This document shows positions 2,899-24,131 of a stretch of DNA of 64,000 bases, piece after piece. Position 1 is the first letter of the stretch, and every line of letters begins with the position of its first letter. The notes under the pieces were generated by a model. The model did no database searches, had not been told where the DNA came from, and saw only the letters and a program-made list of their open reading frames with translations. The DNA is taken from the UHGV virus genome UHGV-1366171; one strand, given 5' to 3'. Both the position numbers and the translations under genes were made by a program. This DNA is from a virus.

Positions 2899-4116
2899 AT
2901 GGAAGATCGTGATTTATTGCAGTATGCTCTTGAACATGATATGATAAGTATGTCATATATTCAGGAACAAGTAAACATGAACAAAAGAAAGGAAATATTA
3001 GAAAAACACCCGTATAAAATTTGGGAAGGAAAAGACGGAAAATGGAGAACATATATTCTCGATGAAAATGGGAAAAGAATTTTAAAAAAGCTTTCGACGA
3101 AAAAAGCAGTGCAAAATATTATTGTGAGTTATTACGAGAATATAGAAAAAGCAAAGACTGAAGATTATAGCTTTCATTCATATTTTCAAAAATGGAAAGA
3201 AAAGCAGGTTTCTTATGGAGTTTCAAATAATACGTTGACAAAGTATGATTCGGATTATAAGCGATATTTTGAAAATTCGAAATTTGAAAAACTTGATATA
3301 AGAAAAATCAATGAAGAAGATATTACCGCTTTTGTTATTCAGCAAATCAAAAAGCTGAACCTCAAAGAAAAAGCGGGAAAATCGCTTATGGGATATATAA
3401 ACGGAGTTTTTAAACACGCGAGAATAAAAAGAATAATATCAGAAAACCCTTGCGAATACGTCGAAACAAGAAACTTTTCGAAGTTTTTTAATCGGGATAA
3501 AAAAAACCCTGAAGAAAGAACCATTAATACTAACGATTTGAATCTTTTATTGAAACAATTATATATTAGCCAAACCCAAAAACCTCATTATATACCGAAT
3601 TATGCGGTAGAATTAGCTATATATACCGGAATGAGAATTGGGGAAATAACTGCATTAAGGTGGGAAAATATTCGCGAAGATCTGGGGGTTATTGTAATAT
3701 GTTGCTCCGAAAAGCACGATAGAATAACTAAGGAATACATCGTTGATTCTACAAAAACCAGAAAAGAACGTCAATTCCCTATTACTCAAAAAATTTCAAG
3801 CTTACTTTATAAAGTGAAAAAAATAGAAATGCAGTATGGATTTCTTGGCGAATACATATTCCAGAATGAAAACGGAAAACTCCATTCTTCTTCTATCGCT
3901 CATTGTATACGTTATAGGTGTATACAGGCCGGAATTCCAGAAAAAAGCATCCAATCACTAAGGCGAACATTAAATTCAAAATTAAGATGTGCTGGTGTGT
4001 CAAGCATTGTTGCAGCATCAATGCTTGGACACACAGAAGAAGTTAATGCTTTAAATTATAGTTATGATATTTCTGAAATGGATTATAAAAGAGAGATATT
4101 ATCCGAGATTATTTGA
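2899..4116 (+). CDS. tyrosine site-specific integrase (phage integrase family)
   Basis: C-terminal catalytic region LAIYTGMRIGEITALRWENI ... LRRTLNSKL ... LGHTEEVNALNYSY (R, K, HxxR, Y nucleophile context). Confidence 0.8.
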   Translation: MEDRDLLQYALEHDMISMSYIQEQVNMNKRKEILEKHPYKIWEGKDGKWRTYILDENGKRILKKLSTKKAVQNIIVSYYENIEKAKTEDYSFHSYFQKWKEKQVSYGVSNNTLTKYDSDYKRYFENSKFEKLDIRKINEEDITAFVIQQIKKLNLKEKAGKSLMGYINGVFKHARIKRIISENPCEYVETRNFSKFFNRDKKNPEERTINTNDLNLLLKQLYISQTQKPHYIPNYAVELAIYTGMRIGEITALRWENIREDLGVIVICCSEKHDRITKEYIVDSTKTRKERQFPITQKISSLLYKVKKIEMQYGFLGEYIFQNENGKLHSSSIAHCIRYRCIQAGIPEKSIQSLRRTLNSKLRCAGVSSIVAASMLGHTEEVNALNYSYDISEMDYKREILSEII

Positions 4117-4128
4117 CTTAGGCAATAA

Positions 4129-4150
4129 AAAGGTAATCACGGGTAATCAA
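4129..4150. repeat. GGTAATCA direct repeats (2 copies), candidate integrase arm-type sites
   Basis: aGGTAATCAcgGGTAATCAaaa immediately 3' of the integrase gene. Confidence 0.4.
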
Positions 4151-4210
4151 AATGTTTGATAATCAAAAAAACGCGAAATCCTTGATTTTACAAGAAAAAA
4201 CGCGTTTTTA

Positions 4211-4245
4211 TGCATGGACCTGGCGGGAATCGAACCCGCGTCCAT
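4211..4245 (-). other. tRNA/tmRNA 3'-end fragment (T-arm GCGGGTTCGATTCCCGC), probable att core
   Basis: Reverse complement reads GGACGCGGGTTCGATTCCCGCCAGGTCCATGCA; no D-arm or anticodon arm upstream, so only the 3' portion is present. Confidence 0.5.
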
Positions 4246-4275
4246 ATCTGGAAATACCTATAAAACAAGGGTTTT

Positions 4276-4310
4276 TTGTATGAGGTAATCAAAAGGTAAT
4301 CAAAAAGGTA
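4276..4310. repeat. GGTAATCA direct repeats (3 copies)
   Basis: gaGGTAATCAaaaGGTAATCAaaaaGGTAATCAgac flanking the tRNA-like fragment. Confidence 0.4.
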
Positions 4311-4417
4311 ATCAGACATATGTTCGATTTAAGTTAAAGATAAGAGGAGGAAATCCTGAATATATGACATCGCAAAGGAATTTTGCGGTGATTTTTTGCA
4401 TTATGGGAGGATTTTCT

Positions 4418-5092
4418 ATGGCTGAACGATATACGAGATATTCAACAGTAAATGATGTGATGAAAGAATTTTTGATCTATGGAGCAGAATTGACGAAAAT
4501 GGGGTATCCAATACTTCCGATGGTACAAACCGTACCATCTAACACCGTAGATTTTTCCGAAAGCTTATCGAGAAAATTGAAGGGACATAAACGATTGAAT
4601 GTGAATTTCTTTGTGGACGATGAAAAATTTGAACGTTTGTACTCAGCACCAGATAGATATATAGAACATCTTAAATGTTTTGAATCAATTTGTGGTCTTG
4701 ATTTTTCCATTGATACACAGATGCCGCTTGTTATGCAGATGTGGAATAAGTACCGAAGCATGGCCTTAGATTGGTATTTAACTTTACAGGGCATTAAAGT
4801 TATCCCAAATGTAAATATTGTCCCGTATGAGGGGCGAAAATGGCTTTTAGATGGGATTCCTAAATATAGTACAGTATGTTGCAGTACAAACGGAAGAATA
4901 AGGTCTAAAAGAGCTAGAGAAGAATTTTGTGACGGTTTTTATCAGATGTGTAGCAAATTAGAACCAACAAGAATTATAGTTGTGGGGAGGCTGCCAGATG
5001 AATTGAGGGATTTAACAAAAGTTATAAATCTTAAAGCAAGAAATCAAAGAATGAATGAAAGATTCGGAAAGGATAAATATGGGGACAAGTAG
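4418..5092 (+). CDS. hypothetical protein (DUF4417-like)
   Basis: Start moved to ATG 4418 with RBS GGGAGG; family assignment from memory of DUF4417 profile, not verified. Confidence 0.3.
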   Translation: MAERYTRYSTVNDVMKEFLIYGAELTKMGYPILPMVQTVPSNTVDFSESLSRKLKGHKRLNVNFFVDDEKFERLYSAPDRYIEHLKCFESICGLDFSIDTQMPLVMQMWNKYRSMALDWYLTLQGIKVIPNVNIVPYEGRKWLLDGIPKYSTVCCSTNGRIRSKRAREEFCDGFYQMCSKLEPTRIIVVGRLPDELRDLTKVINLKARNQRMNERFGKDKYGDK

Positions 5093-5224
5093 TGAGAATA
5101 ATGAGCGATATAAACGAAGAAGGAAAGAGCAAGAAGAAAGATCCGAAAAAACACGTCGTCAGTTAGAGCAAATGATTAAGGATAGAATATTGACAAAATA
5201 AATTTTTCGATTTTTGTGCAAATT

Positions 5225-5266
5225 GACAGCTCAAGTTTATACACTGTGTATACATATAGGCGCTAT
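5225..5266 (+). promoter_or_regulatory. promoter-like TTGACA with overlapping 15-bp palindrome TATACACTGTGTATA (operator-like)
   Basis: perfect inverted repeat TATACAC-T-GTGTATA at about 5250-5264 overlapping the -10 region. Confidence 0.3.
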
Positions 5267-5710
5267 TGTACAAAATTTGATCTATAAGGTGCTTTTTCTC
5301 CTGTAGGTTTTTTGCCCGTTTTTTAATTTCGATATTTTTTATATATCAGGCCGATTCTTGTTCTAAACTGAAACGATAAACAGAACAGCGCATTCTTTAC
5401 GTACTCCAAAACTTATGCTGAACACGTTAAACGGCTCTAAAATCGTTTGTAACTCGTTTGGACATTATAACCTACCTATGCGATCAAAAAACGGCTAAAA
5501 GCCCTTTAAACACTTATAGCATAGCATTGTAATATATGGTTGTCAATGTACATTTTTATGGTCCATGTCGTTTTAATTTGCCTTATATAGCGTTTTTGAA
5601 ATGTAACGTTGCTTTCCGGTGATTGCGTTTTAAACATCTCAAAATAGGGAATACACGCTTGTAGAACCGTGCCGGCCGGAATTGAACCAGCTAAAAAGCA
5701 CCAGAGCACA

Positions 5711-7221: not shown

Positions 7222-7324
7222 AAGCGCTAATTCAATATGTAATAACTAACAAATTAAACACTAATATTAGGCTGAAAATTGTGCGCTTTTATTAAACGCT
7301 AATGCTTGACTATTAAACACTAAT
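7222..7324. repeat. reiterated 12-bp motif TTAARCRCTAAT (4 copies) upstream of DUF4160 operon
   Basis: TTAAGCGCTAAT 7222, TTAAACACTAAT 7254, TTAAACGCTAAT 7293, TTAAACACTAAT 7313. Confidence 0.6.
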
Positions 7325-7334
7325 ATATTATAAT
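7306..7334 (+). promoter_or_regulatory. consensus sigma-A promoter with operator motif in spacer
   Basis: TTGACT-attaaacactaatatat(17)-TATAAT. Confidence 0.6.
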
Positions 7335-7364
7335 ATAGGCACAAACAGAAAGGGAGTGAACGAA

Positions 7365-7616
7365 ATGCCAGAAATAAGCAGATTTTACGGAATAGTAATA
7401 AAGATGTTCTTCAAGCCAAAAGAACATGAACCAAGTCATATACATGCTTTATATGGCGAGTATGTCGGAATTTTTGACTTGCAGAGCATGGAAATGACAG
7501 AGGGAGACTTACCAAAGAAAGCGCAGGAGCTTATAAAGGAATGGCTTTATAAGAATCAAGAAGAACTTTTAAAAATGTGGGAAACTCAAAAATTAAGGAA
7601 ACTGCCGCCGTTATAA
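7365..7616 (+). CDS. DUF4160 family protein
   Basis: MPEISRFYGIVIKMFFKPKEHEPSHIHALYGEY matches the DUF4160 N-terminal signature; RBS GGGAG. Confidence 0.6.
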   Translation: MPEISRFYGIVIKMFFKPKEHEPSHIHALYGEYVGIFDLQSMEMTEGDLPKKAQELIKEWLYKNQEELLKMWETQKLRKLPPL

Positions 7617-7644
7617 GCGGCTTTTTCCCGTGGGAGGTGGCGAA

Positions 7645-7896
7645 ATGATACCAAGAATAAAGAGCGTAAAACCACATGAAAATTATATTTTATATGTTAT
7701 TTTTGATGATGGGAAAGAATGCTTGTATAATGTAAAAGAAGATATAGACAGCATAGAACAGTATAAGGATTTGGAAACAATACAAGGACTTTTTGAACAA
7801 GCACAGCTTGACGAAAGTCGAACGTGCGTTTTTTGGAATGAATATATTGATCTAGCAAGTGACACAATATATGAATACGGGAAAGAGGTTGAATAA
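7645..7896 (+). CDS. DUF2442 family protein
   Basis: MIPRIKSVKPHENYILYVIFDDGKE... classic partner of DUF4160; RBS GGGAGGTGG. Confidence 0.6.
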   Translation: MIPRIKSVKPHENYILYVIFDDGKECLYNVKEDIDSIEQYKDLETIQGLFEQAQLDESRTCVFWNEYIDLASDTIYEYGKEVE

Positions 7897-8093
7897 TGGC
7901 AGATAAGAAGAAAATTGATCCAGAATTAAACCGGGCAAGAGTCAAGGCAACTATGGCAAAAAGAGACAGAATAAATATAATTTTGCCAGAAGGTACAAAT
8001 GACAGAATAGATGCTTTAGGGTTTAAGCGGTCCGATTTTGCAAAAACGCTAATTTTAACGGAATTAGACAGATTAGAAAAGATGAAAAAATAA
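7896..8093 (+). CDS. ribbon-helix-helix (CopG/Arc-like) DNA-binding protein
   Basis: beta-strand INIILPEG followed by two helices; ATGA overlap with upstream gene. Confidence 0.45.
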   Translation: MADKKKIDPELNRARVKATMAKRDRINIILPEGTNDRIDALGFKRSDFAKTLILTELDRLEKMKK

Positions 8094-8136
8094 ACACTAA
8101 TTTTTTAGATAACTATTGACAATTAAACACTAATAT
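8093..8136. repeat. TTAAACACTAAT motif, 2 more copies
   Basis: AAACACTAAT at 8093 and TTAAACACTAAT at 8125. Confidence 0.55.
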
Positions 8137-8140
8137 GATA
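8112..8140 (+). promoter_or_regulatory. second consensus promoter with same operator in spacer
   Basis: TTGACA-attaaacactaatatga(17)-TATAAT. Confidence 0.6.
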
Positions 8141-8198
8141 TAATAAAGACAGTTTAAGGAAGGGCAAGACCTTAGCAGAAAGAAAGGAGTAAACCAGA

Positions 8199-8363
8199 AT
8201 GGAGGAAGTAAGGGAAATGACAGAAAAAGAAATGCAGACAGTTAAAATGTCCACGCTGTACGAATTGAGATTGATTTTTACACAAGGGGAAAAGAAACAG
8301 TACAGCACTGAAGAAATTGTAGAACTCTTAGATAAAATAGCGACAGCAAAAGACCAGAAATAA
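8199..8363 (+). CDS. hypothetical small protein (54 aa)
   Basis: RBS AAAGGAG 8183-8189; below ORF-track cutoff. Confidence 0.35.
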   Translation: MEEVREMTEKEMQTVKMSTLYELRLIFTQGEKKQYSTEEIVELLDKIATAKDQK

Positions 8364-8532
8364 GGTAATCAGGGAGGGCGGGCTTGCCACCGCTCCCCAC
8401 ATGAAATTATGAAAAGGGGAAAAACAATGAAAACGATAGAAACGATTGAGAATTACAGAAAAGGTACAACGATAGATCTTTATTGTAATTATGGAGTCCT
8501 GAACTCAGAAAAAATGAATGTGTACACATAAA

Positions 8533-8760
8533 ATGATCGAAAAATATACACATTACGGTGTTAATGTAGTGTATCAGATAATAGATACATTTAAAAATAA
8601 TAATTTTAGACAAGAGCTGAAAGAAAATGGTATAGCATGGACTGATTTGCCAATTCTCGATACGGATGTTTTAACATACGTAAAAGACGGCATCACAAAA
8701 TATGCCTGCATCAAAAAGGGCGCCGAATATGCGGAGAGAGTCTATACCTATGCCACTTAA
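8533..8760 (+). CDS. hypothetical protein
   Basis: ORF (internal ATG chosen). Confidence 0.3.
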   Translation: MIEKYTHYGVNVVYQIIDTFKNNNFRQELKENGIAWTDLPILDTDVLTYVKDGITKYACIKKGAEYAERVYTYAT

Positions 8761-17571: not shown

Positions 17572-17733
17572 TATGTGGTTTAGGTATTTAATATCATTCA
17601 TTGATGTTTTAATGGTTTTTTGCCTGATATATTTTATGAATGGATTGTCCTGGGAAGATAATAAAGCCTCTATTTTAGGATTCGGAATAATGTTTTTCAG
17701 TTATATAGCGAGTATTGCTCTAATGTGGATATA
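17572..17733 (+). CDS. small two-TM membrane protein (53 aa)
   Basis: MWFRYLISFIDVLMVFCLIYF...; below ORF-track cutoff. Confidence 0.3.
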
Positions 17734-17743
17734 AGGCTTATTT

Positions 17744-17832
17744 TGGGCTATCGCCAAGCGGTTAAGGCACCGGGCTTTGACCCCGGAAGAGAAGGAACGC
17801 TCTTTACGCTGGTTCGAATCCAGCTAGCCCAG
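17744..17832 (+). tRNA. class II-type tRNA (long variable arm) with apparent UUG anticodon
   Basis: TGGGCTA-TC-GCC/AAGCGGTTAA/GGC-A-CCGGG/CTTTGAC/CCCGG-21 nt variable arm-GCTGG/TTCGAAT/CCAGC-TAGCCCA-G; T1-A72. Confidence 0.45.
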
Positions 17833-18054
17833 TTGGTTTCTGATTTTGGCATAGAAACTTTCTCCACCACCTACGGCGCAAGGCTGTGACAAAAGGAGAT
17901 TCAAATGCTCCGGGTGGTTTTGTCCGACTACTGTTTGAGGACGTAAAATAAAAGAACAGCGTGTAGATTGGCGGTAAGGCGATACGATTCTAAATACCGC
18001 ATGGTGCCTAAAGCAGCACGATAAATAATGCAAAAACGGGAGAAATCCCGTTAC

Positions 18055-18128
18055 GGATCATTAGCTCAGATGGTGAGAGCCGTTGCCTCATAAGCAGAAG
18101 GTCGTAGGTTCGAGTCCTACATGATCCA
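18055..18128 (+). tRNA. tRNA-Met/Ile2 (CAT)
   Basis: GGATCAT-TA-GCTC/AGATGGTGA/GAGC ... loop CTCATAA ... GTAGG/TTCGAGT/CCTAC-ATGATCC-A. Confidence 0.75.
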
Positions 18129-18187
18129 TTCCGCCATAGCTAGTACCCTTTGGCTGTCAGGTACGGCAGCGGCTATGGTAGGAACCA

Positions 18188-18270
18188 CGAGACGTAGCTA
18201 AATTGGCAGAGCACTGAAAGCCGGATACAACTATGTACAGAAGACGGCGGTTCGAATCCGCCCGTCTCGA
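18188..18270 (+). ncRNA. tRNA-like RNA: perfect acceptor (CGAGACG/CGTCTCG), D-arm and T-arm but no foldable anticodon arm
   Basis: 32-nt central segment CTGAAAGCCGGATACAACTATGTACAGAAGAC gives no 5-bp/7-nt anticodon hairpin. Confidence 0.4.
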
Positions 18271-18464
18271 TTTTACCACTTAGCAGGATGGGTATACCTG
18301 CTACGAAATCCTGTGAAAAAACTTTTCTAGAGAGATAAGACCAAAGGTCGTGAGGAGCAGTAGTCGGTGATTCTGGAAGATTCCCGGAAGTATGAGATGC
18401 AAAACGCCGTAAGTCTGTGGTACCTGCGACACGTTAATTGCATGGTGGTTTTATAAGGGAATAC

Positions 18465-18536
18465 GCCGATATAGTTCAATGGTAGAACGCTACACTTGTA
18501 ATGTAGATGCTATTGGTTCGAGTCCGATTATCGGCT
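18465..18536 (+). tRNA. tRNA-Thr (TGT)
   Basis: GCCGATA-TA-GTTC/AATGGTA/GAAC-G-CTACA/CTTGTAA/TGTAG-ATGCT-ATTGG/TTCGAGT/CCGAT-TATCGGC-T. Confidence 0.75.
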
Positions 18537-19026
18537 TTCGTATGGAGACTTGTGCAGATACCAATTCGCGGAATGGCAAACAGAAACTAGTGCTCTATAC
18601 GTAAATTACAGCAATTCAGATGGCCGGTACATCGGCGGCGCAATAAGCCGTGAATGGTTGCTGATAAGACTGAGATCCAGGAACTAAGGCGCGTATAATG
18701 TTGCCTGGAGGGAAAATATCAAATGGGTTTGGCCACCAGGAGATATGTTTTTCGGTAAAGTGCGGGGGTATTTTATCATGCTCAGTCTTTAATCTATCTG
18801 CCAAGTGCAGAAAAGGAATCCGGTTTTCGTATGACGATTACTGGTTTTAGCTCATGTACCAAGTGCACAAGGAGCATTCGACGCAGATGATGATAAAATA
18901 TGCGTTTGAGGTGAAAATCAACCTATGCAGTCTGCGGATTGCATAACCGTGATAGGCGATATTATATACCGGCATCGTTTGAAAAGAAATCCGAGTAAAA
19001 GCCAACTTTTCTTACCTTGTCGGTTC

Positions 19027-19100
19027 CGGGATGTAGCGTAGTTTGGTAACGCGCCTAATTTGGGATTAGGAGATCGTCGGTTCAAATCCGGCCATTCCGG
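19027..19100 (+). tRNA. tRNA-Pro (TGG)
   Basis: CGGGATG-TA-GCGT/AGTTTGGTA/ACGC-G-CCTAA/TTTGGGA/TTAGG-AGATC-GTCGG/TTCAAAT/CCGGC-CATTCCG-G; C1-G72 as in bacterial tRNA-Pro. Confidence 0.75.
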
Positions 19101-19289
19101 TTGCGGCAATGTACAAATGGCATGAAACGTGAGGATTGATTTGTATTCCATTTTATGAATTGCGTGGATTGCTGTTTCGTTGTACGCATAGTTCTGATTC
19201 AACATTCAAAGTTCGGTACGTGGCCGCACAGACAGGCAAATGCCAGATGTTGATTAGCCCCACACAGCCCTTGTGGACAAAAATGGGCA

Positions 19290-19451
19290 TGGATAGTGGC
19301 GGAAGTAGACGCTAAGGGCAAGCATACATAGGGAGAACAGCGTAAGCCGACTGCAGGGCAGTCAAAAAGGCCATAGCAGTAACCCTGAATTATACTAAGG
19401 GGTTATATTAGATTCGGGGTGTGCGTGTGGGTATCAAATCCCACCTATCCA
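19290..19451 (+). ncRNA. tRNA-like RNA with about 100-nt insertion in place of the anticodon/variable region
   Basis: perfect 7-bp acceptor TGGATAG/CTATCCA, D-arm-like GCG/GAAGTAGA/CGC, T-like arm GTGGG/TATCAAAT/CCCAC abutting 3' acceptor. Confidence 0.35.
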
Positions 19452-19501
19452 TTCCTTAGAACTGCAATCTGAGGAAATTTGTTTATTTTCTTTCAAAGGT
19501 T

Positions 19502-19621
19502 CTGGCAGAGGTTTCAATGGACGAAACGCTCATCCGCAGGCTAATAATACTTGGTAAATAGAAGCCATTCAAGGGGATGGCTTCCGGGGACAGAAATGGG
19601 GAGTTCGATTCTCCCCTGCCA
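19502..19621 (+). ncRNA. tRNA-like RNA with expanded centre (contains 8-bp hairpin GAAGCCAT/ATGGCTTC)
   Basis: perfect acceptor CTGGCAG/CTGCCAG, T-arm GGGAG/TTCGATT/CTCCC, D-like GTTTC/AATGGAC/GAAAC. Confidence 0.35.
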
Positions 19622-19874
19622 GATCGGGTGCATTGTTGTAGACAGCACTCATTTCATTACGCCAAGCCGCCTCACTATCGCTACGGTGGGGCGATATTTA
19701 AAGAGATAAATGAGGAGAATTAGATGGTGTCGCCGGTTATTAATCAGTGTTACATACAACATAGTGATTTGAGAAACTGTCAAAAAGAAATTCTAATTAC
19801 ATATCAAACATTGAACGGAGGAAGATTTGCAAAACAGGTTTTGTGTAATTATAGACGAGTGGAGAAGAAAATAA

Positions 19875-20051
19875 ATGGGAAAAGCAAAACGTAAACCAAG
19901 GCCACAGCCAGCAAGATGGTATTGGTGGGATAGCGATAATTGCTGGGATTGTAAAAATCGGAATAATTGCAATCAGTGCAAAAGAATGAAGCGGCAGAAG
20001 ACTTATAAACGTGAAAAAAAGGAGAGAAAGCAGAAGTATGAGCATGACTGA
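19875..20051 (+). CDS. hypothetical Lys/Cys/Trp-rich mini-protein (58 aa)
   Basis: MGKAKRKPRPQPARWYWWDSDNCWDCKNRNNCNQCKRMKRQ...; RBS GGAG. Confidence 0.25.
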   Translation: MGKAKRKPRPQPARWYWWDSDNCWDCKNRNNCNQCKRMKRQKTYKREKKERKQKYEHD

Positions 20052-20295
20052 AATTATAGATGGTATGACACATGAAATGGTGGGAAGCGATAGTTTTGAA
20101 CAATTTATGAATAGACCATTACCTCATAACGGACAGGCGTACATACAGAGGGATTATAAAACTGGAAAAGATTATATTTGTTGTCCTTTCTGCGGAAAGA
20201 AGAACTTTCCATTAACGCCCGGAGCGCATATCACAGGGCAGAAGTTTAAGTGCAAGGGATCAAATTGCCGGGAGATTTTTGAGGTGAATGTATGA
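20038..20295 (+). CDS. hypothetical Zn-ribbon protein
   Basis: CCPFCGKK...CKGSNC; RBS AAAAAGGAGAGAAAG. Confidence 0.45.
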   Translation: MSMTEIIDGMTHEMVGSDSFEQFMNRPLPHNGQAYIQRDYKTGKDYICCPFCGKKNFPLTPGAHITGQKFKCKGSNCREIFEVNV

Positions 20296-20531
20296 ACAAG
20301 AAAGTGATAGGAATTGTACTGATTTTGGCAATCTGCTTTGGATTGACGGGGTGCATAAAAGGAAATAGACTAGAAAACCAAGAAAACACATCTTGGTATG
20401 GCATATTAAATGATGGTTCTTGCTTTGTATATACATTTAAAGATGAAGAAACGGGAGTATGGTACATTTCAACATCTGAAGGCATCACGCCAAGATTGAA
20501 CGCAGATGGAACATTGTATGTGAGTGAATGA
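20292..20531 (+). CDS. small lipoprotein
   Basis: signal peptide MNKKVIGIVLILAICFGLTGC (lipobox LTGC). Confidence 0.55.
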   Translation: MNKKVIGIVLILAICFGLTGCIKGNRLENQENTSWYGILNDGSCFVYTFKDEETGVWYISTSEGITPRLNADGTLYVSE

Positions 20532-20577
20532 ACCTGTAAGGATTTCTTACAAGTTGGGAGGAAAAGATAAAAGCCCG

Positions 20578-20739
20578 TTATTTTCCAACGGACTTTAAAT
20601 ACATATCAATAGCTTTATCAAGTAATTTGCTTATGGGAATAGATGTTTCTTCCGAATAAGATTTTAAACGAGAATATAGTTCTTTATCAATAGCGTTAGA
20701 TATTGCTATGCGATTTTTTAAACCACGATTTTCTTGCAT
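20578..20739 (-). CDS. ribbon-helix-helix regulator (paralog 2), 53 aa
   Basis: MQENRGLKNRIAISNAIDKELYSRLKSY... about 70% identical to the 10503..10664 product; RBS AGGAGG. Confidence 0.6.
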   Translation of the reverse strand: MQENRGLKNRIAISNAIDKELYSRLKSYSEETSIPISKLLDKAIDMYLKSVGK

Positions 20740-20775
20740 ATAGAATCCTCCTTTGATTTGATAATTATATCATAT

Positions 20776-20830
20776 CTTTCAACTACTTGCAATTCAGTTT
20801 TAAATATGATATACTACAAGCAGTTGAAAG
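20776..20830 (+). promoter_or_regulatory. promoter (TTGCAA-N17-TATACT) bracketed by 14-bp inverted repeat CTTTCAACTACTTG / CAAGCAGTTGAAAG
   Basis: 13/14 complementary arms flanking -35 and -10; operator-like. Confidence 0.5.
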
Positions 20831-20856
20831 TAGTATTCTAAAAGGAATGTGGTTTA

Positions 20857-22056
20857 ATGAATGAAGAAGATAAGGGAGACCAAGAAAGGATGCTAAAGAG
20901 TTACAAGACGGAAATCAATCCAACTATGGAACAAATACATAAAATCAATAAAACAATTGGCACTTGCCGTTTTGTATACAACTTTTATCTTGCCCGCAAC
21001 AAAGAAGTTTATGAAAAAGAGAAGAAATTTGTATCTGGAATGGAGTTCTCAAAATGGCTAAATAATGTTTATTTAAAAGAGAATCCAGAGTATGTATGGA
21101 TAAAAGAGGTTAGCACAAAATCGGTAAAACAAAGCATTATGAATTCCGAAAGATCTTTTAAGAGATTCTTCAAAGGACAGTCCGGTTTTCCTAAATTCAA
21201 GAAGAAAGGAAAATCGGATGTAAAAATGTATTTTATGAAAACAAATTCTCAGACAATAATAACATGCGAAAGACACCGAATCAAAATATCGACACTCGGA
21301 TGGGTTAGATTAAAAGAAAAGGGATATATTCCTTGGGATTCAAATACTTACATTATCAAGAGTGGTACTGTTTCTTGTAGAGCTGGACGATATTATGTAT
21401 CAGTCTTGGTTGAGCAACCAGAAAGAGAAAGACTACAATTACAAGATTTTGGATTTGGAATTGACCTTGGTGTTAAAAATTTTGCGGTTATAAGCAATGG
21501 GCTTGTAAAGAAAAACATCAATAAAACAAATAAGGTAAAAAAATTAGAAAAACAACTAAAACGAGAACAACGGTGTCTTTCTAGGAAATACGAAAGTTTA
21601 AAGAAGAATAATAAGAAAGGAGAGTCTTCCAGAGAAAATATTCAAAAACAAATATTAAAGGTGAAAAGGCTTTATTGCAGGATAGACAATATCCGCACTG
21701 ACTACATCAATAAAACAATAGCTGAGATTGTGAAAACCAAACCATCTTATATCGCTGTTGAAGATTTGAATGTATCAGGTATGATGAAGAACAGGCATCT
21801 TTCGAAGGCTGTTGCATCACAAAAATTTTATGAATTTAGAGTGAAATTGGAAGCAAAATGCAAAGAATATGGAATTGAATTGAGAATTGTAGACAGATGG
21901 TATCCATCCAGTAAACTTTGCCATGAATGTGGTTGTATCAGGAAAGACTTAAAACTTTCTGACAGAGAATATGTGTGCGAATGTGGATATCATGCAGATA
22001 GAGATTATAATGCAAGTCTTAATTTAAGAGATGCCACATCCTACAAAGTAGCATAA
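20857..22056 (+). CDS. tnpB: TnpB (IS200/IS605-family OrfB, RuvC-like + C-terminal zinc finger)
   Basis: N-terminal OrfB_IS605 region (KTEINPT...GTCRFVYN), C-terminal CHECGC...CECGYHADRDYNASLNL zinc finger. Confidence 0.8.
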   Translation: MNEEDKGDQERMLKSYKTEINPTMEQIHKINKTIGTCRFVYNFYLARNKEVYEKEKKFVSGMEFSKWLNNVYLKENPEYVWIKEVSTKSVKQSIMNSERSFKRFFKGQSGFPKFKKKGKSDVKMYFMKTNSQTIITCERHRIKISTLGWVRLKEKGYIPWDSNTYIIKSGTVSCRAGRYYVSVLVEQPERERLQLQDFGFGIDLGVKNFAVISNGLVKKNINKTNKVKKLEKQLKREQRCLSRKYESLKKNNKKGESSRENIQKQILKVKRLYCRIDNIRTDYINKTIAEIVKTKPSYIAVEDLNVSGMMKNRHLSKAVASQKFYEFRVKLEAKCKEYGIELRIVDRWYPSSKLCHECGCIRKDLKLSDREYVCECGYHADRDYNASLNLRDATSYKVA

Positions 22057-22421
22057 ACAAGCATTTGCAGGTATGTACCGATGGCTAGTCGGGAATTGAC
22101 GACTGTGGAGTGTACAAGAACTTGTGAGTAGTATCTGTATTTACTCAGGGCGAAAGCATATACAGAGAAGCAGTAAGAAATGTTCGCAAGAACTTTCAAT
22201 ATCTCGATATGGATATCTTTGTTCATATTTTGAGTAGCAGCCAAGCGTAAGCGGAGATTGAAAAATTTTTATATTCACAGAATCGAGATGAAAAAATGTA
22301 AAACAAGCAAAATCTTCTATGTAAATAGAAATAGAAGTTAAGTAAAATAAGATGAAATAGTAAAATGAGAGTCATTTGAGAGCCAAATTTCTTACTAAGT
22401 AGGGAAGGAGGCTCTTTTGTT

Positions 22422-24131
22422 TTGCGAGAAGGAACGCTTGAATGGTACAAAAAAATTTTTTCGGAAATCTTAAAAGACGACATGACACAATACCAAAACC
22501 AAATAGATAGCTGGCAGCTTCTTTTGAATATGAAGCAAGATTTAGGTTTTGAGGATAAAGAAATTCGTGATTATGCTATGAAGATCAGCCAGTACACACA
22601 CAAGATGGCTGACTATGTAGCAGGGCAGACGGGAAGCGGAAAGTTTAATGATTTGTACTATAAATTGTTATTGTTGGAAGCTCAAAATTATCAAGTGGAT
22701 AGCGGACTTCTATATCTGGAAAAAAATAGAGTTCCCAAGGAACGATTTTATGAGCCGCGCCGAGAGGTTTTTATAAAGCACCAAATTATCCAGTCATTAC
22801 AGGATTTGATGGATGATAAACTTGATATTTTTGCTTTGAGCGTTCCACCGGGTTGTGGTAAATCAACTCTGGAAGATTTTTTCTTATCCCTTGTTGGTGG
22901 ATGGTTCCCAAATGATTTTAACCTATCCTCAGCGCATAGTAGCATTTTGACCCATTCCCTTTATGATGGCGTATTGGAAATTATAAATGACCCGGTAGAG
23001 TATACATGGCATGAAATATTTCCTAATGTAAAGCTGACTGGAACAAATGCTAAGGAAACCACAGTAAACCTCGAAAGGAATGGGCGATTTAAAACATGGA
23101 CTTTTCGTTCCATAGATGGTTCGTTGACGGGAGCCACAAGATGTAATCGTTTTTTGACAGCAGATGACTTGGTATCTGGAATTGAAGAAGCACTGAACAA
23201 GTCACGCCTGGAAACACTTTGGACAAAGGTTGTGAATGATCTTCGTTCCAGACGACTTGAAGGGTGTAAAGAAATCTATATTGCCACAAGATGGTCTGTC
23301 CATGACCCGATTGGAAAACTACAACAGCTATATGAAGGAAATCCCAAAGCCAGATTTATTGCGGTTCCGGCTTTGAACGAAGATGGCGAGAGTAACTTCA
23401 TGTTTGCGGTGAATGGATTTTCAAAGAAATACTTCATGGACGCTAAGGAATCTATGGATGATCTATCCTTTAAATGCCTGTATCAGCAACAGCCGATTGA
23501 GCGAGAGGGATTACTATTTCCTACAGATGAACTGCGCCGCTTTTTCTTCAATCGGGAGCAAGTACCGGAAAAGCAGACAGAGTTTATTATTATGCCAGAG
23601 CGGACGCCTGATGCTATATGGGCGGTGTGCGATACAAAGGATACAGGAGCGGATTTTGAATCTTTACCGATTGCATATCAATTTGGAGAAGATTTTTTTA
23701 TACCGGATGTAGTATTTGATGACACAACAGATTATGACACATTGGATATGAAATCCGCTAATATTTTGATTCGACACAATCCCCATAAGATAAGGTTTGA
23801 ATCAAATAGTGCAGGAGGCAGAGTCGCGCATAATGTTCAAAAATTGATAGATGGAAAATGTCGAGCACAGATCGAGCCTGAGAGAACACAAGCGAACAAA
23901 GAAACCAAAATATTAGTCAATTCTGATTGGATTAAAAAACACTGTATATTTTTAGACCCAAGTTTATATACGCCAAAATCAGACTATGGTTTGTTCATGG
24001 AAAATGTGGTTACATATACAGTCAAAGTTAAGCCGCCACATGATGATGGGCCAGACTCTCTGGCAATGCTTGCAGAATATGTAGCAAGGCCAGTGCAAAA
24101 ACCAACAACAATAATCAATAGTCCGATTTGA
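22422..24131 (+). CDS. terminase large subunit
   Basis: TTG start with RBS GGAAGGAGG; ATPase region SVPPGCGKST; 569 aa typical TerL size and position before portal. Confidence 0.7.
   Translation: MREGTLEWYKKIFSEILKDDMTQYQNQIDSWQLLLNMKQDLGFEDKEIRDYAMKISQYTHKMADYVAGQTGSGKFNDLYYKLLLLEAQNYQVDSGLLYLEKNRVPKERFYEPRREVFIKHQIIQSLQDLMDDKLDIFALSVPPGCGKSTLEDFFLSLVGGWFPNDFNLSSAHSSILTHSLYDGVLEIINDPVEYTWHEIFPNVKLTGTNAKETTVNLERNGRFKTWTFRSIDGSLTGATRCNRFLTADDLVSGIEEALNKSRLETLWTKVVNDLRSRRLEGCKEIYIATRWSVHDPIGKLQQLYEGNPKARFIAVPALNEDGESNFMFAVNGFSKKYFMDAKESMDDLSFKCLYQQQPIEREGLLFPTDELRRFFFNREQVPEKQTEFIIMPERTPDAIWAVCDTKDTGADFESLPIAYQFGEDFFIPDVVFDDTTDYDTLDMKSANILIRHNPHKIRFESNSAGGRVAHNVQKLIDGKCRAQIEPERTQANKETKILVNSDWIKKHCIFLDPSLYTPKSDYGLFMENVVTYTVKVKPPHDDGPDSLAMLAEYVARPVQKPTTIINSPI

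Follow-up and report, generated by a model that had tools for sequence, protein, structure and literature searches.

The virus genome UHGV-1366171, of which a stretch of 64,000 nt was analysed (hereafter the window), is tailed-phage-like and carries, between a small DUF6440-like gene and the terminase gene, a tnpB gene that is divergent from the gene of a small Arc-like ribbon-helix-helix (RHH) repressor (Table 1). We propose that this is a composite cassette, in which an Arc module has been joined to a transposase-less TnpB and its guide RNA, and that it acts most likely as a free-standing homing endonuclease. Judging from the sequence comparisons set out below, we put the probability of this reading at roughly 0.7. 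The original prediction, made from the DNA letters without database searches, had described the locus as a solo TnpB under divergent RHH control, followed by a 365-nt structured non-coding tail as candidate omega RNA. It was partly confirmed; its interpretation was right in its two main ideas, but over-specific. Both parts are of known kinds, namely an IS607-type TnpB with a RAGATH-18 guide RNA and an Arc-repressed TnpB cassette. What this locus adds is evidence, at the level of single alleles, that one phage repressor/operator module takes either an HNH homing endonuclease or a TnpB without transposase as interchangeable cargo.

This evidence comes from the slot flanked by the DUF6440-like and terminase genes, which in related loci (L numbers) is filled by Arc proteins 96–98% identical to that of the window. 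TnpB is the Arc cargo in the window, L066, L320, L322–L326 and L329, and a 159-aa HNH endonuclease together with RtcB is the Arc cargo in L302–L309 and L321. A single 53-aa Arc sequence (P0006) accompanies TnpB in L320 and L322–L325 as well as HNH and RtcB in L321. Neither cassette is present in L079 and L082, where the slot is empty. Positions 20527–20866 of the window are 94% identical to the Arc-HNH-RtcB loci L302–L306; the similarity ends at 20866 and returns at 22367, in the terminase leader. A remnant of the HNH gene, consisting of its ribosome-binding site (RBS) and first 10 nt, is still in place in front of the first breakpoint, and the HNH open reading frame (ORF) and the window ORF both begin ATGAATGAAG. 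The junctions lie between 20866 and 20867 (Arc module to IS607-type DNA) and at about 22366/22367. It follows from this mapping that the segment 20867–22366 replaces the HNH-RtcB cargo, with repressor, operator and promoter unchanged. The repressor module is not dedicated to TnpB, as the same Arc and operator front HNH endonucleases in sister phages. The dedicated RHH repressor of the original prediction is thus retained in part: there are strong indications of control of the tnpB promoter, but the module drives HNH cargo too.

The slot as a whole is a hypervariable cargo site. In L188 it contains a 312-aa kinase/HD-like and a 389-aa RNA-ligase-like protein (both assigned by eye only), and in L303 an additional RNA ligase (phrog_14301) is found beside Arc, HNH and RtcB. 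The exact TnpB protein of the window is recorded on only four contigs, in identical context in all of them; one is a 90-kb contig from the JGI metagenome 3300045988. A megablast search of deposited phage genomes with positions 19300–23800 gave no match at all.

The plus-strand tnpB gene turned out as predicted, with three Pfam TnpB domains in one ORF that starts at 20857 or 20890. Its product aligns with ISFba1 TnpB (PDB 8IAZ) at E = 8e-169, and 266 of 383 aligned residues are identical (69%). The D/E/D triad of the RuvC domain is intact (D203/E302/D383 in the numbering of a 399-aa protein, corresponding to D194/E290/D371 of ISFba1) and is kept in every aligned relative. Likewise, the zinc-ribbon cysteines are intact, and the RNA-contacting residues listed for ISFba1 are all conserved. 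Among the residues that contact the target-adjacent motif (TAM), five of six are conserved, the exception being N121, which is replaced by T.

The start codon deserves a comment. An in-frame upstream ATG at 20857 would extend the protein from 388 to 399 aa. The alignment with ISFba1 TnpB, however, begins at residue 12 of the longest ORF, and the relatives start at this position, with a TTG that is preceded by an AAGGAG-type RBS; the start is therefore probably the ATG at 20890, which has a native RBS, AAGGGAG, at 20873–20879. DNA similarity to the relatives sets in at about 20868–20891, only some 22 nt upstream of the tnpB start. The extra 11 residues (MNEEDKGDQER, 20857–20889) begin with an ATG derived from the displaced HNH gene. 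This ATG is in frame in L066 and L324 too, despite diverged sequence, and database records differ by gene caller, with 399 aa in some and 388 aa in others. At the other end of tnpB, a promoter-like site (TGGATA-16-TATAAT, 21984–22011, 10 of 12 matches) lies about 55 nt before the start of the guide RNA. It could be an internal guide-RNA promoter; its TATAAT consists of the D-Y-N codons of the RuvC-III motif and may be there by chance.

A TnpA transposase, either Y1 or serine, was not found anywhere in the window, and tblastn with the TnpAs of L002 and L012 gave no match in it. The claim that a Y1/HUH TnpA is missing was thus correct, but the transposase that this clade would be expected to carry is the serine TnpA of IS607. 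In many relatives an ORF of about 225 aa overlaps the tnpB start, and the one tested, from L002, contains Resolvase and MerR-HTH domains, which identifies it as the serine transposase of IS607. In the window the gene upstream of tnpB is the RHH gene on the opposite strand. The left ends of the relatives start with AAAC(A/T)TTAAGTAAT and lie next to AGGAG(G) or GGGAGG, in agreement with the published AGGAG TAM. This left end is absent from the window, even with up to 3 mismatches allowed. Without TnpA and left end, the element cannot transpose by itself. The TnpB segment is the right part of an IS607-type element, comprising tnpB, scaffold and guide. Its tnpB, guide RNA and right end have homologous counterparts in autonomous IS607 transposons of phage relatives (L001–L003, L012 and others), from which the window differs in having neither TnpA nor left end and hence no excision or insertion by transposition. 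TnpA is present in 80% of the published loci with a TnpB of this kind (PMC11061315).

Some features of the relatives may be noted here. Of 41 distinct right flanks in the IS607-type loci L001–L078, 30 contain the start codon of a reading frame of 60 aa or more no further than 25 nt from the right end (mode 8 nt). These elements thus tend to be located behind the Shine-Dalgarno sequence of a phage gene and ahead of its start codon, and the TAM itself resembles an RBS; the window copy departs from this pattern. L013, a phage locus from IMG/VR, contains two copies of TnpB and guide RNA (4002–5339 and 7252–8589), 3.2 kb apart. Other TnpB loci without TnpA have no recognisable divergent regulator, and their nine candidate upstream ORFs had no Pfam match. 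An IStron was rejected as an explanation of the window locus, as no intron family was detected at 17000–24000 (E ≤ 1) or in the whole window at gathering scores.

Despite the loss of the transposase, TnpB is conserved. Between two Arc-linked sublineages with the same junction, the ratio of nonsynonymous to synonymous substitution rates (dN/dS) is 0.07–0.10 at a dS of 0.22. As the sublineages share the junction, TnpB must have been under purifying selection since the transposase was lost. Purifying selection on a TnpB without transposase would also be expected if the protein had been domesticated as an RNA-guided transcriptional repressor in the manner of TldR. This is barely credible here: with all catalytic residues of the RuvC domain and the zinc-ribbon cysteines present, the TldR reading was rejected, and the guide has no second match in the 64-kb window with 3 mismatches allowed, hence no self-target.

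The region downstream of tnpB (22057–22421, 365 nt up to the terminase gene) has no credible ORF on the plus strand, in line with the original prediction. A comparison with covariance models, as had been proposed for this tail, yielded a full-length match to the RAGATH-18 motif well above the gathering score (Table 1). For IS607-type TnpB, this motif has been shown to form the core of the guide RNA, which is termed reRNA and is an omega RNA (Ren et al. 2024, PMC11061315). In the published layout, the reRNA begins at a distance of 13 nt from the tnpB stop codon; a 5' flank of 37 nt precedes the motif of 73 nt, and a 3' flank of 64 nt separates the motif from the guide (PMC11061315). The tail of the window agrees with this layout, from the short gap after the stop codon to the variable 20-nt guide. 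In about 60 related loci, DNA similarity (blastn against fetched IMG/VR loci) ends at 22239–22244, 64 nt past the motif, and the 20 nt after the scaffold are unrelated between aligned loci. This places the scaffold at 22070–22240 and the guide at 22241–22260.

In an alignment of 20 diverse scaffolds, RNAalifold predicted 41 base pairs, of which 22 show compensatory changes. A fold of the single sequence 22066–22260, on the other hand, was no better than those of shuffled sequences (z = -0.71), so that the structural evidence for the scaffold is comparative only. The local hairpins pointed out in the original prediction are therefore not supported as such; it is covariation that supports a structure. 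We conclude from the motif match, the shared layout, the sharp end of the similarity ahead of a hypervariable guide and the covariation that the tail contains what is by all indications a TnpB guide RNA. It is confined to 22070–22260, about half of the tail, whereas the original prediction had considered all 365 nt; the remainder is an AT-rich spacer and the leader of the terminase gene. The motif ATATCTTTC, said to be repeated in the tail from the left end, could not be recovered there: the exact 9-mer occurs at 20772 and the tail only has ATATCTTTG at 22213. With four copies in 64 kb against 1.5 expected, its frequency is within chance.

What the guide might recognize was examined in a scan of metagenomes with its first 16 nt; the following figures refer to the matches listed. 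Most of these did not extend beyond 16 nt and look like chance. The others included two occupied copies (L232, L295) and at least five TnpB-free alleles (L188, L189, L249, L270, L296), all five on contigs syntenic with the window phage; these TnpB-free alleles are the only natural targets that the guide has among the matches listed. The TnpB-free alleles read AGAGAG, then CCAAGCGTAAGCGGAG, then AGCCAAA, and this site lies in the terminase leader, just upstream of the RBS of the next gene. The guide matches them at 17 of 20 positions, contiguously from the TAM side and directly after GAGAG: the natural allele is GAGAG followed by CCAAGCGTAAGCGGAGAGCC, and the matched stretch is GAGAG followed by CCAAGCGTAAGCGGAGA. 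A scan of IMG/VR for the naive target returned the same phage only.

A second guide allele, CCAAACTTTGAACAGAAGGG, was found in L324, whose Arc-TnpB junction is the same and whose scaffold shows 93.6% identity to that of the window. In L249, 21 nt that follow the next GAGAG match this guide. Compared with L320, a copy with the guide of the window (CCAAGCGTAAGCGGAGATTG), L324 differs by a dS of only 0.036. One deletion of 18 nt between AGCCAA repeats could turn the first guide into the second. Two independent insertions beside GAGAG were dropped as an explanation in view of this small dS and of the TnpA-less left junction that both alleles share.

The similarity to the TnpB-free alleles breaks off 17 nt past the right end in the window (at 22258, ahead of the spacer) and 21 nt past it in L324, and unrelated AT-rich spacers of about 106 and 150 nt, respectively, follow. 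The spacer of the window matched nothing in the fetched loci except copies of the same cassette, and a scan of IMG/VR with it found the same phage only. ISFba1 TnpB cuts at 16 nt on the non-target strand and at 22 nt on the target strand (PMC11061315). The breaks near these sites could be repair scars of TnpB cutting, or they could simply reflect unsampled alleles. Should an unoccupied allele GAGAG followed by CCAAGCGTAAGCGGAGATTGAAAAA exist, the flank would be merely ancestral, contrary to the idea of a cut-site scar.

The other half of the cassette is the Arc module. The divergent RHH gene of the original prediction was recovered as a 53-aa Arc-like repressor gene, and its 118 homologues are all of about this size. 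The bracketed promoter was confirmed as well: a 14-nt inverted repeat with 13 of 14 positions complementary (perfect in L066, as read from the sequence) encloses the predicted tnpB promoter with its extended -10 element. The arc and tnpB promoters have a palindromic -35 hexamer, TTGCAA (20787–20792), in common. The left arm of the repeat overlaps this hexamer, and the right arm lies just 3' of the tnpB -10 element, over the expected transcription start. A 64-nt stretch of the tnpB promoter region has 86% identity to the Arc-HNH locus L164. In eight Arc intergenic regions with different cargo, TTGCAA, the TG of the extended -10 element and AGTTGAA in the right arm are invariant, and conservation of the operator extends over eight loci, where the cargo is TnpB or one of four kinds of HNH endonuclease. 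Arc homologues in other phages have a homologous promoter/operator and are divergent from HNH endonucleases of several families. Among the other fetched IMG/VR TnpB loci, none has this RHH gene except L066, which is a copy of the same cassette. A search of genome contigs with the RHH protein found only two loci, and a scan of IMG/VR for the operator pattern only six. The one new locus from the latter, L177, was discarded as a probable chance match, as its ORF list shows no RHH-sized gene around the match.

Arc-like RHH genes have been reported next to tnpB as well as next to homing endonucleases (Zedaveinyte et al., PMC10690162). In chromatin immunoprecipitation sequencing and reporter experiments, Arc was found to bind motifs of opposite orientation that cover the -35 and -10 elements of divergent promoters (Moon et al. 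2026, bioRxiv 10.64898/2026.09.24.754181). According to the same preprint of September 2026, Arc represses the tnpB promoter, and elements that consist of Arc and tnpB only do exist. Taken together with the conserved architecture, this published repression strongly suggests RHH control of the tnpB promoter, and Arc control in the window would then be an instance of the published mechanism. An alternative is that the RHH protein is an incidental neighbour, a phage regulator or antitoxin with targets of its own and no regulatory tie to tnpB. Arc-like proteins have very diverse neighbours, and one source labels a homologue as 'post-segregation antitoxin'. We nevertheless consider this highly improbable, as the inverted repeat lies exactly over the shared -35 element and the tnpB transcription start, arc, operator and promoter move as one module before nuclease cargo at a minimum of eight loci, and experiments on related elements have demonstrated that Arc represses tnpB promoters.

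A working model of the cassette can be outlined as follows. Arc dimers would bind both operator arms and repress arc and tnpB, thereby keeping expression low. The tnpB transcript would give rise to the protein and, out of its 3' untranslated region, to a guide RNA of about 190 nt, and the complex would cut DNA with a guide match beside a purine-rich TAM. In a co-infecting relative, the TnpB-free allele of the terminase leader would be broken, and the break would end either in allele conversion by recombination, that is homing, or in exclusion of the competitor. Intronless homing and localized marker exclusion are both known for free-standing phage HNH homing endonucleases (PMC13565253). In a fuller scenario, to which we give somewhat less than even odds, a TnpB unit took over the HNH slot together with the Arc operator and promoter, and became a transposase-independent RNA-guided homing or exclusion nuclease that can be retargeted via small changes of its right flank.

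It is also conceivable that the break alone matters. TnpB would then be a competition weapon that cuts the terminase leader of rivals, phages or prophages, in a localized exclusion without the cassette being copied. A target in the terminase leader of syntenic relatives, ahead of a gene essential for packaging, would suit this purpose, and the flanks in relatives are mosaic and often merely 64–82% identical, which would hamper gene conversion. The same Arc-TnpB cassette occurs, however, in several upstream gene backgrounds, as expected from spread by recombination. As the steps of expression, TAM recognition and cleavage are common to both explanations, they are hard to separate; we regard exclusion without homing as plausible but rather unlikely.

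Several observations weigh against a homing nuclease. The motif at the natural target, GAGAG, is outside the published AGGAG/GAGGG, ISFba1 TnpB no longer cut when AGGAG was changed at a single position (PMC11061315), and close relatives adjoin GGAG-type flanks. The replacement of N121 by T was rejected as the cause of a change at TAM position -4, since relatives with T at this position adjoin GGAG-type flanks. Only 17 of the 20 guide positions are matched, while ISFba1 has been reported to be mismatch-sensitive, and the census of TnpB-free alleles is a lower bound. The link between operator and repressor is drawn by analogy, the Arc proteins studied experimentally being those of IS605-type elements. 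Finally, some copies decay, as seen from the truncated Arc-linked copy in L327 (1860–2849, 329 aa).

The non-canonical motif and the truncated copy would equally fit a stranded remnant, that is, a passive IS607 fragment without transposase and left end whose guide is just the last flank. The unexplained spacer past the guide might be seen in the same light. It seems distinctly unlikely, however, that such a fragment would have kept all catalytic and RNA-binding residues and an intact scaffold. The low dN/dS was accrued after the Arc junction had formed, and the cassette is present in many samples and mosaic phage backgrounds. We therefore favour an active homing nuclease over a passive remnant.

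The cassette combines traits of several known systems. With the TnpB-reRNA of ISFba1 (PMC11061315; PDB 8IAZ) it shares a protein of about 390 aa and the catalytic, RNA-binding and most TAM-contacting residues. It differs in the motif at its natural target and in the T in place of N121, which reads TAM position -4 in ISFba1, and it is located in a phage and fused to a foreign promoter/repressor module. As in the Arc-containing elements of the IS605 family, a small RHH gene is divergent from tnpB, with two predicted divergent promoters and oppositely oriented repeats over the -35 and the -10/start region. Unlike in those elements, this TnpB is a member of the IS607/RAGATH-18 clade, arc lies outside recognisable transposon ends and was not inherited with the insertion sequence, and the same Arc/operator carries HNH or TnpB, allele by allele, at one phage locus. 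Free-standing phage HNH homing endonucleases (reviewed in PMC13565253) resemble the cassette in their position between conserved genes adjoining terminase and in their variable presence in close relatives. In both cases a candidate target lies next to the insertion point in alleles without the nuclease, and the occupied allele lacks the cleavable configuration. Here, however, the target would be read by a guide RNA and a TAM instead of a protein, homing is our proposal, and retargeting would need a change of flanking DNA only.

As to the wider locus, the terminase gene is followed by an SPP1-type portal gene. Rfam models identified six tRNA genes (12115–12187, 17744–17832, 18055–18128, 18188–18270, 18465–18536 and 19027–19100), five of which are clustered directly upstream of the cassette. 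Together with the RNA-repair genes in the same slot of relatives, they hint at a phage response to tRNA-cleaving defences of the host. The terminase leader carries GAGAG..GAGAGCC repeats. A hairpin GAGAGCC...GGCTCT (22378–22384 and 22410–22415) surrounds the terminase RBS AAGGAGG (22405–22411), and relatives of the L189 type have GCGGAG...CTCCGC at this position, which looks compensatory. The hairpin may be an element of translational or termination control in the terminase leader.

Table 1. Coordinates of the Arc-TnpB cassette and adjoining features in the window
Feature	Position	Strand	Evidence or remark
Terminator-like hairpin over the arc stop codon	20570–20596	-	11-pair stem and T-rich tail (terminator scan)
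arc, 53-aa Arc-like RHH repressor gene	20578–20739	-	Pfam RHH_3 PF12651, 58.5 bits; PHROG 3180 'Arc-like repressor', E = 3.9e-19
Predicted arc promoter, TTGCAA-17-TATAAT with TG	20764–20792	-	Promoter scan, 10 of 12 matches
Operator inverted repeat, left arm CTTTCAACTACTTG	20776–20789		Overlaps the shared -35
Predicted tnpB promoter, TTGCAA-17-TATACT, extended -10 TG	20787–20815	+	Promoter scan
Operator inverted repeat, right arm CAAGCAGTTGAAAG	20817–20830		3' of the tnpB -10
HNH gene remnant, RBS and first 10 nt (ATG 20857, 'MNE')	20841–20866	+	HNH N-terminus MNEAKMRY
tnpB (388 aa)	20890–22056	+	Pfam HTH_OrfB_IS605, OrfB_IS605, Cas12f1-like_TNB
Guide-RNA scaffold, 5' flank	22070–22101	+	Conserved block GTATGTACC... 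with covarying stem
RAGATH-18 motif, scaffold core	22102–22176	+	Rfam RF03064, full-length, 62.2 bits (gathering score 44.9)
Scaffold, 3' flank (64 nt)	22177–22240	+	Ends at the element right end (...TTTTGAGTAGCAG); covarying stems
Guide CCAAGCGTAAGCGGAGATTG	22241–22260	+	Hypervariable position among relatives
AT-rich spacer	22261–22366		106 nt; no strand assigned
Terminase leader common to relatives	22367–22421	+	94% identical to L302; compared with L188, L302 and L079
Terminase large subunit gene	22422–24131		Weak Terminase-T7 RNaseH-like match (Pfam)

TnpB is usually viewed as a helper that restores a transposon after the transposase has excised it. Here the transposase has been lost, yet the nuclease and its guide RNA are under strong purifying selection, at the site where sister phages carry a protein-only homing endonuclease. 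The locus would thus be a natural case for RNA-guided and protein-guided homing nucleases as exchangeable cargo, and for the Arc module as a general 'leash' on toxic phage nucleases. It also offers a compact set of parts, consisting of a repressor, an operator, a 388-aa nuclease and a guide RNA of about 190 nt, and the candidate non-canonical TAM GAGAG, if confirmed, may be of interest for genome editing.

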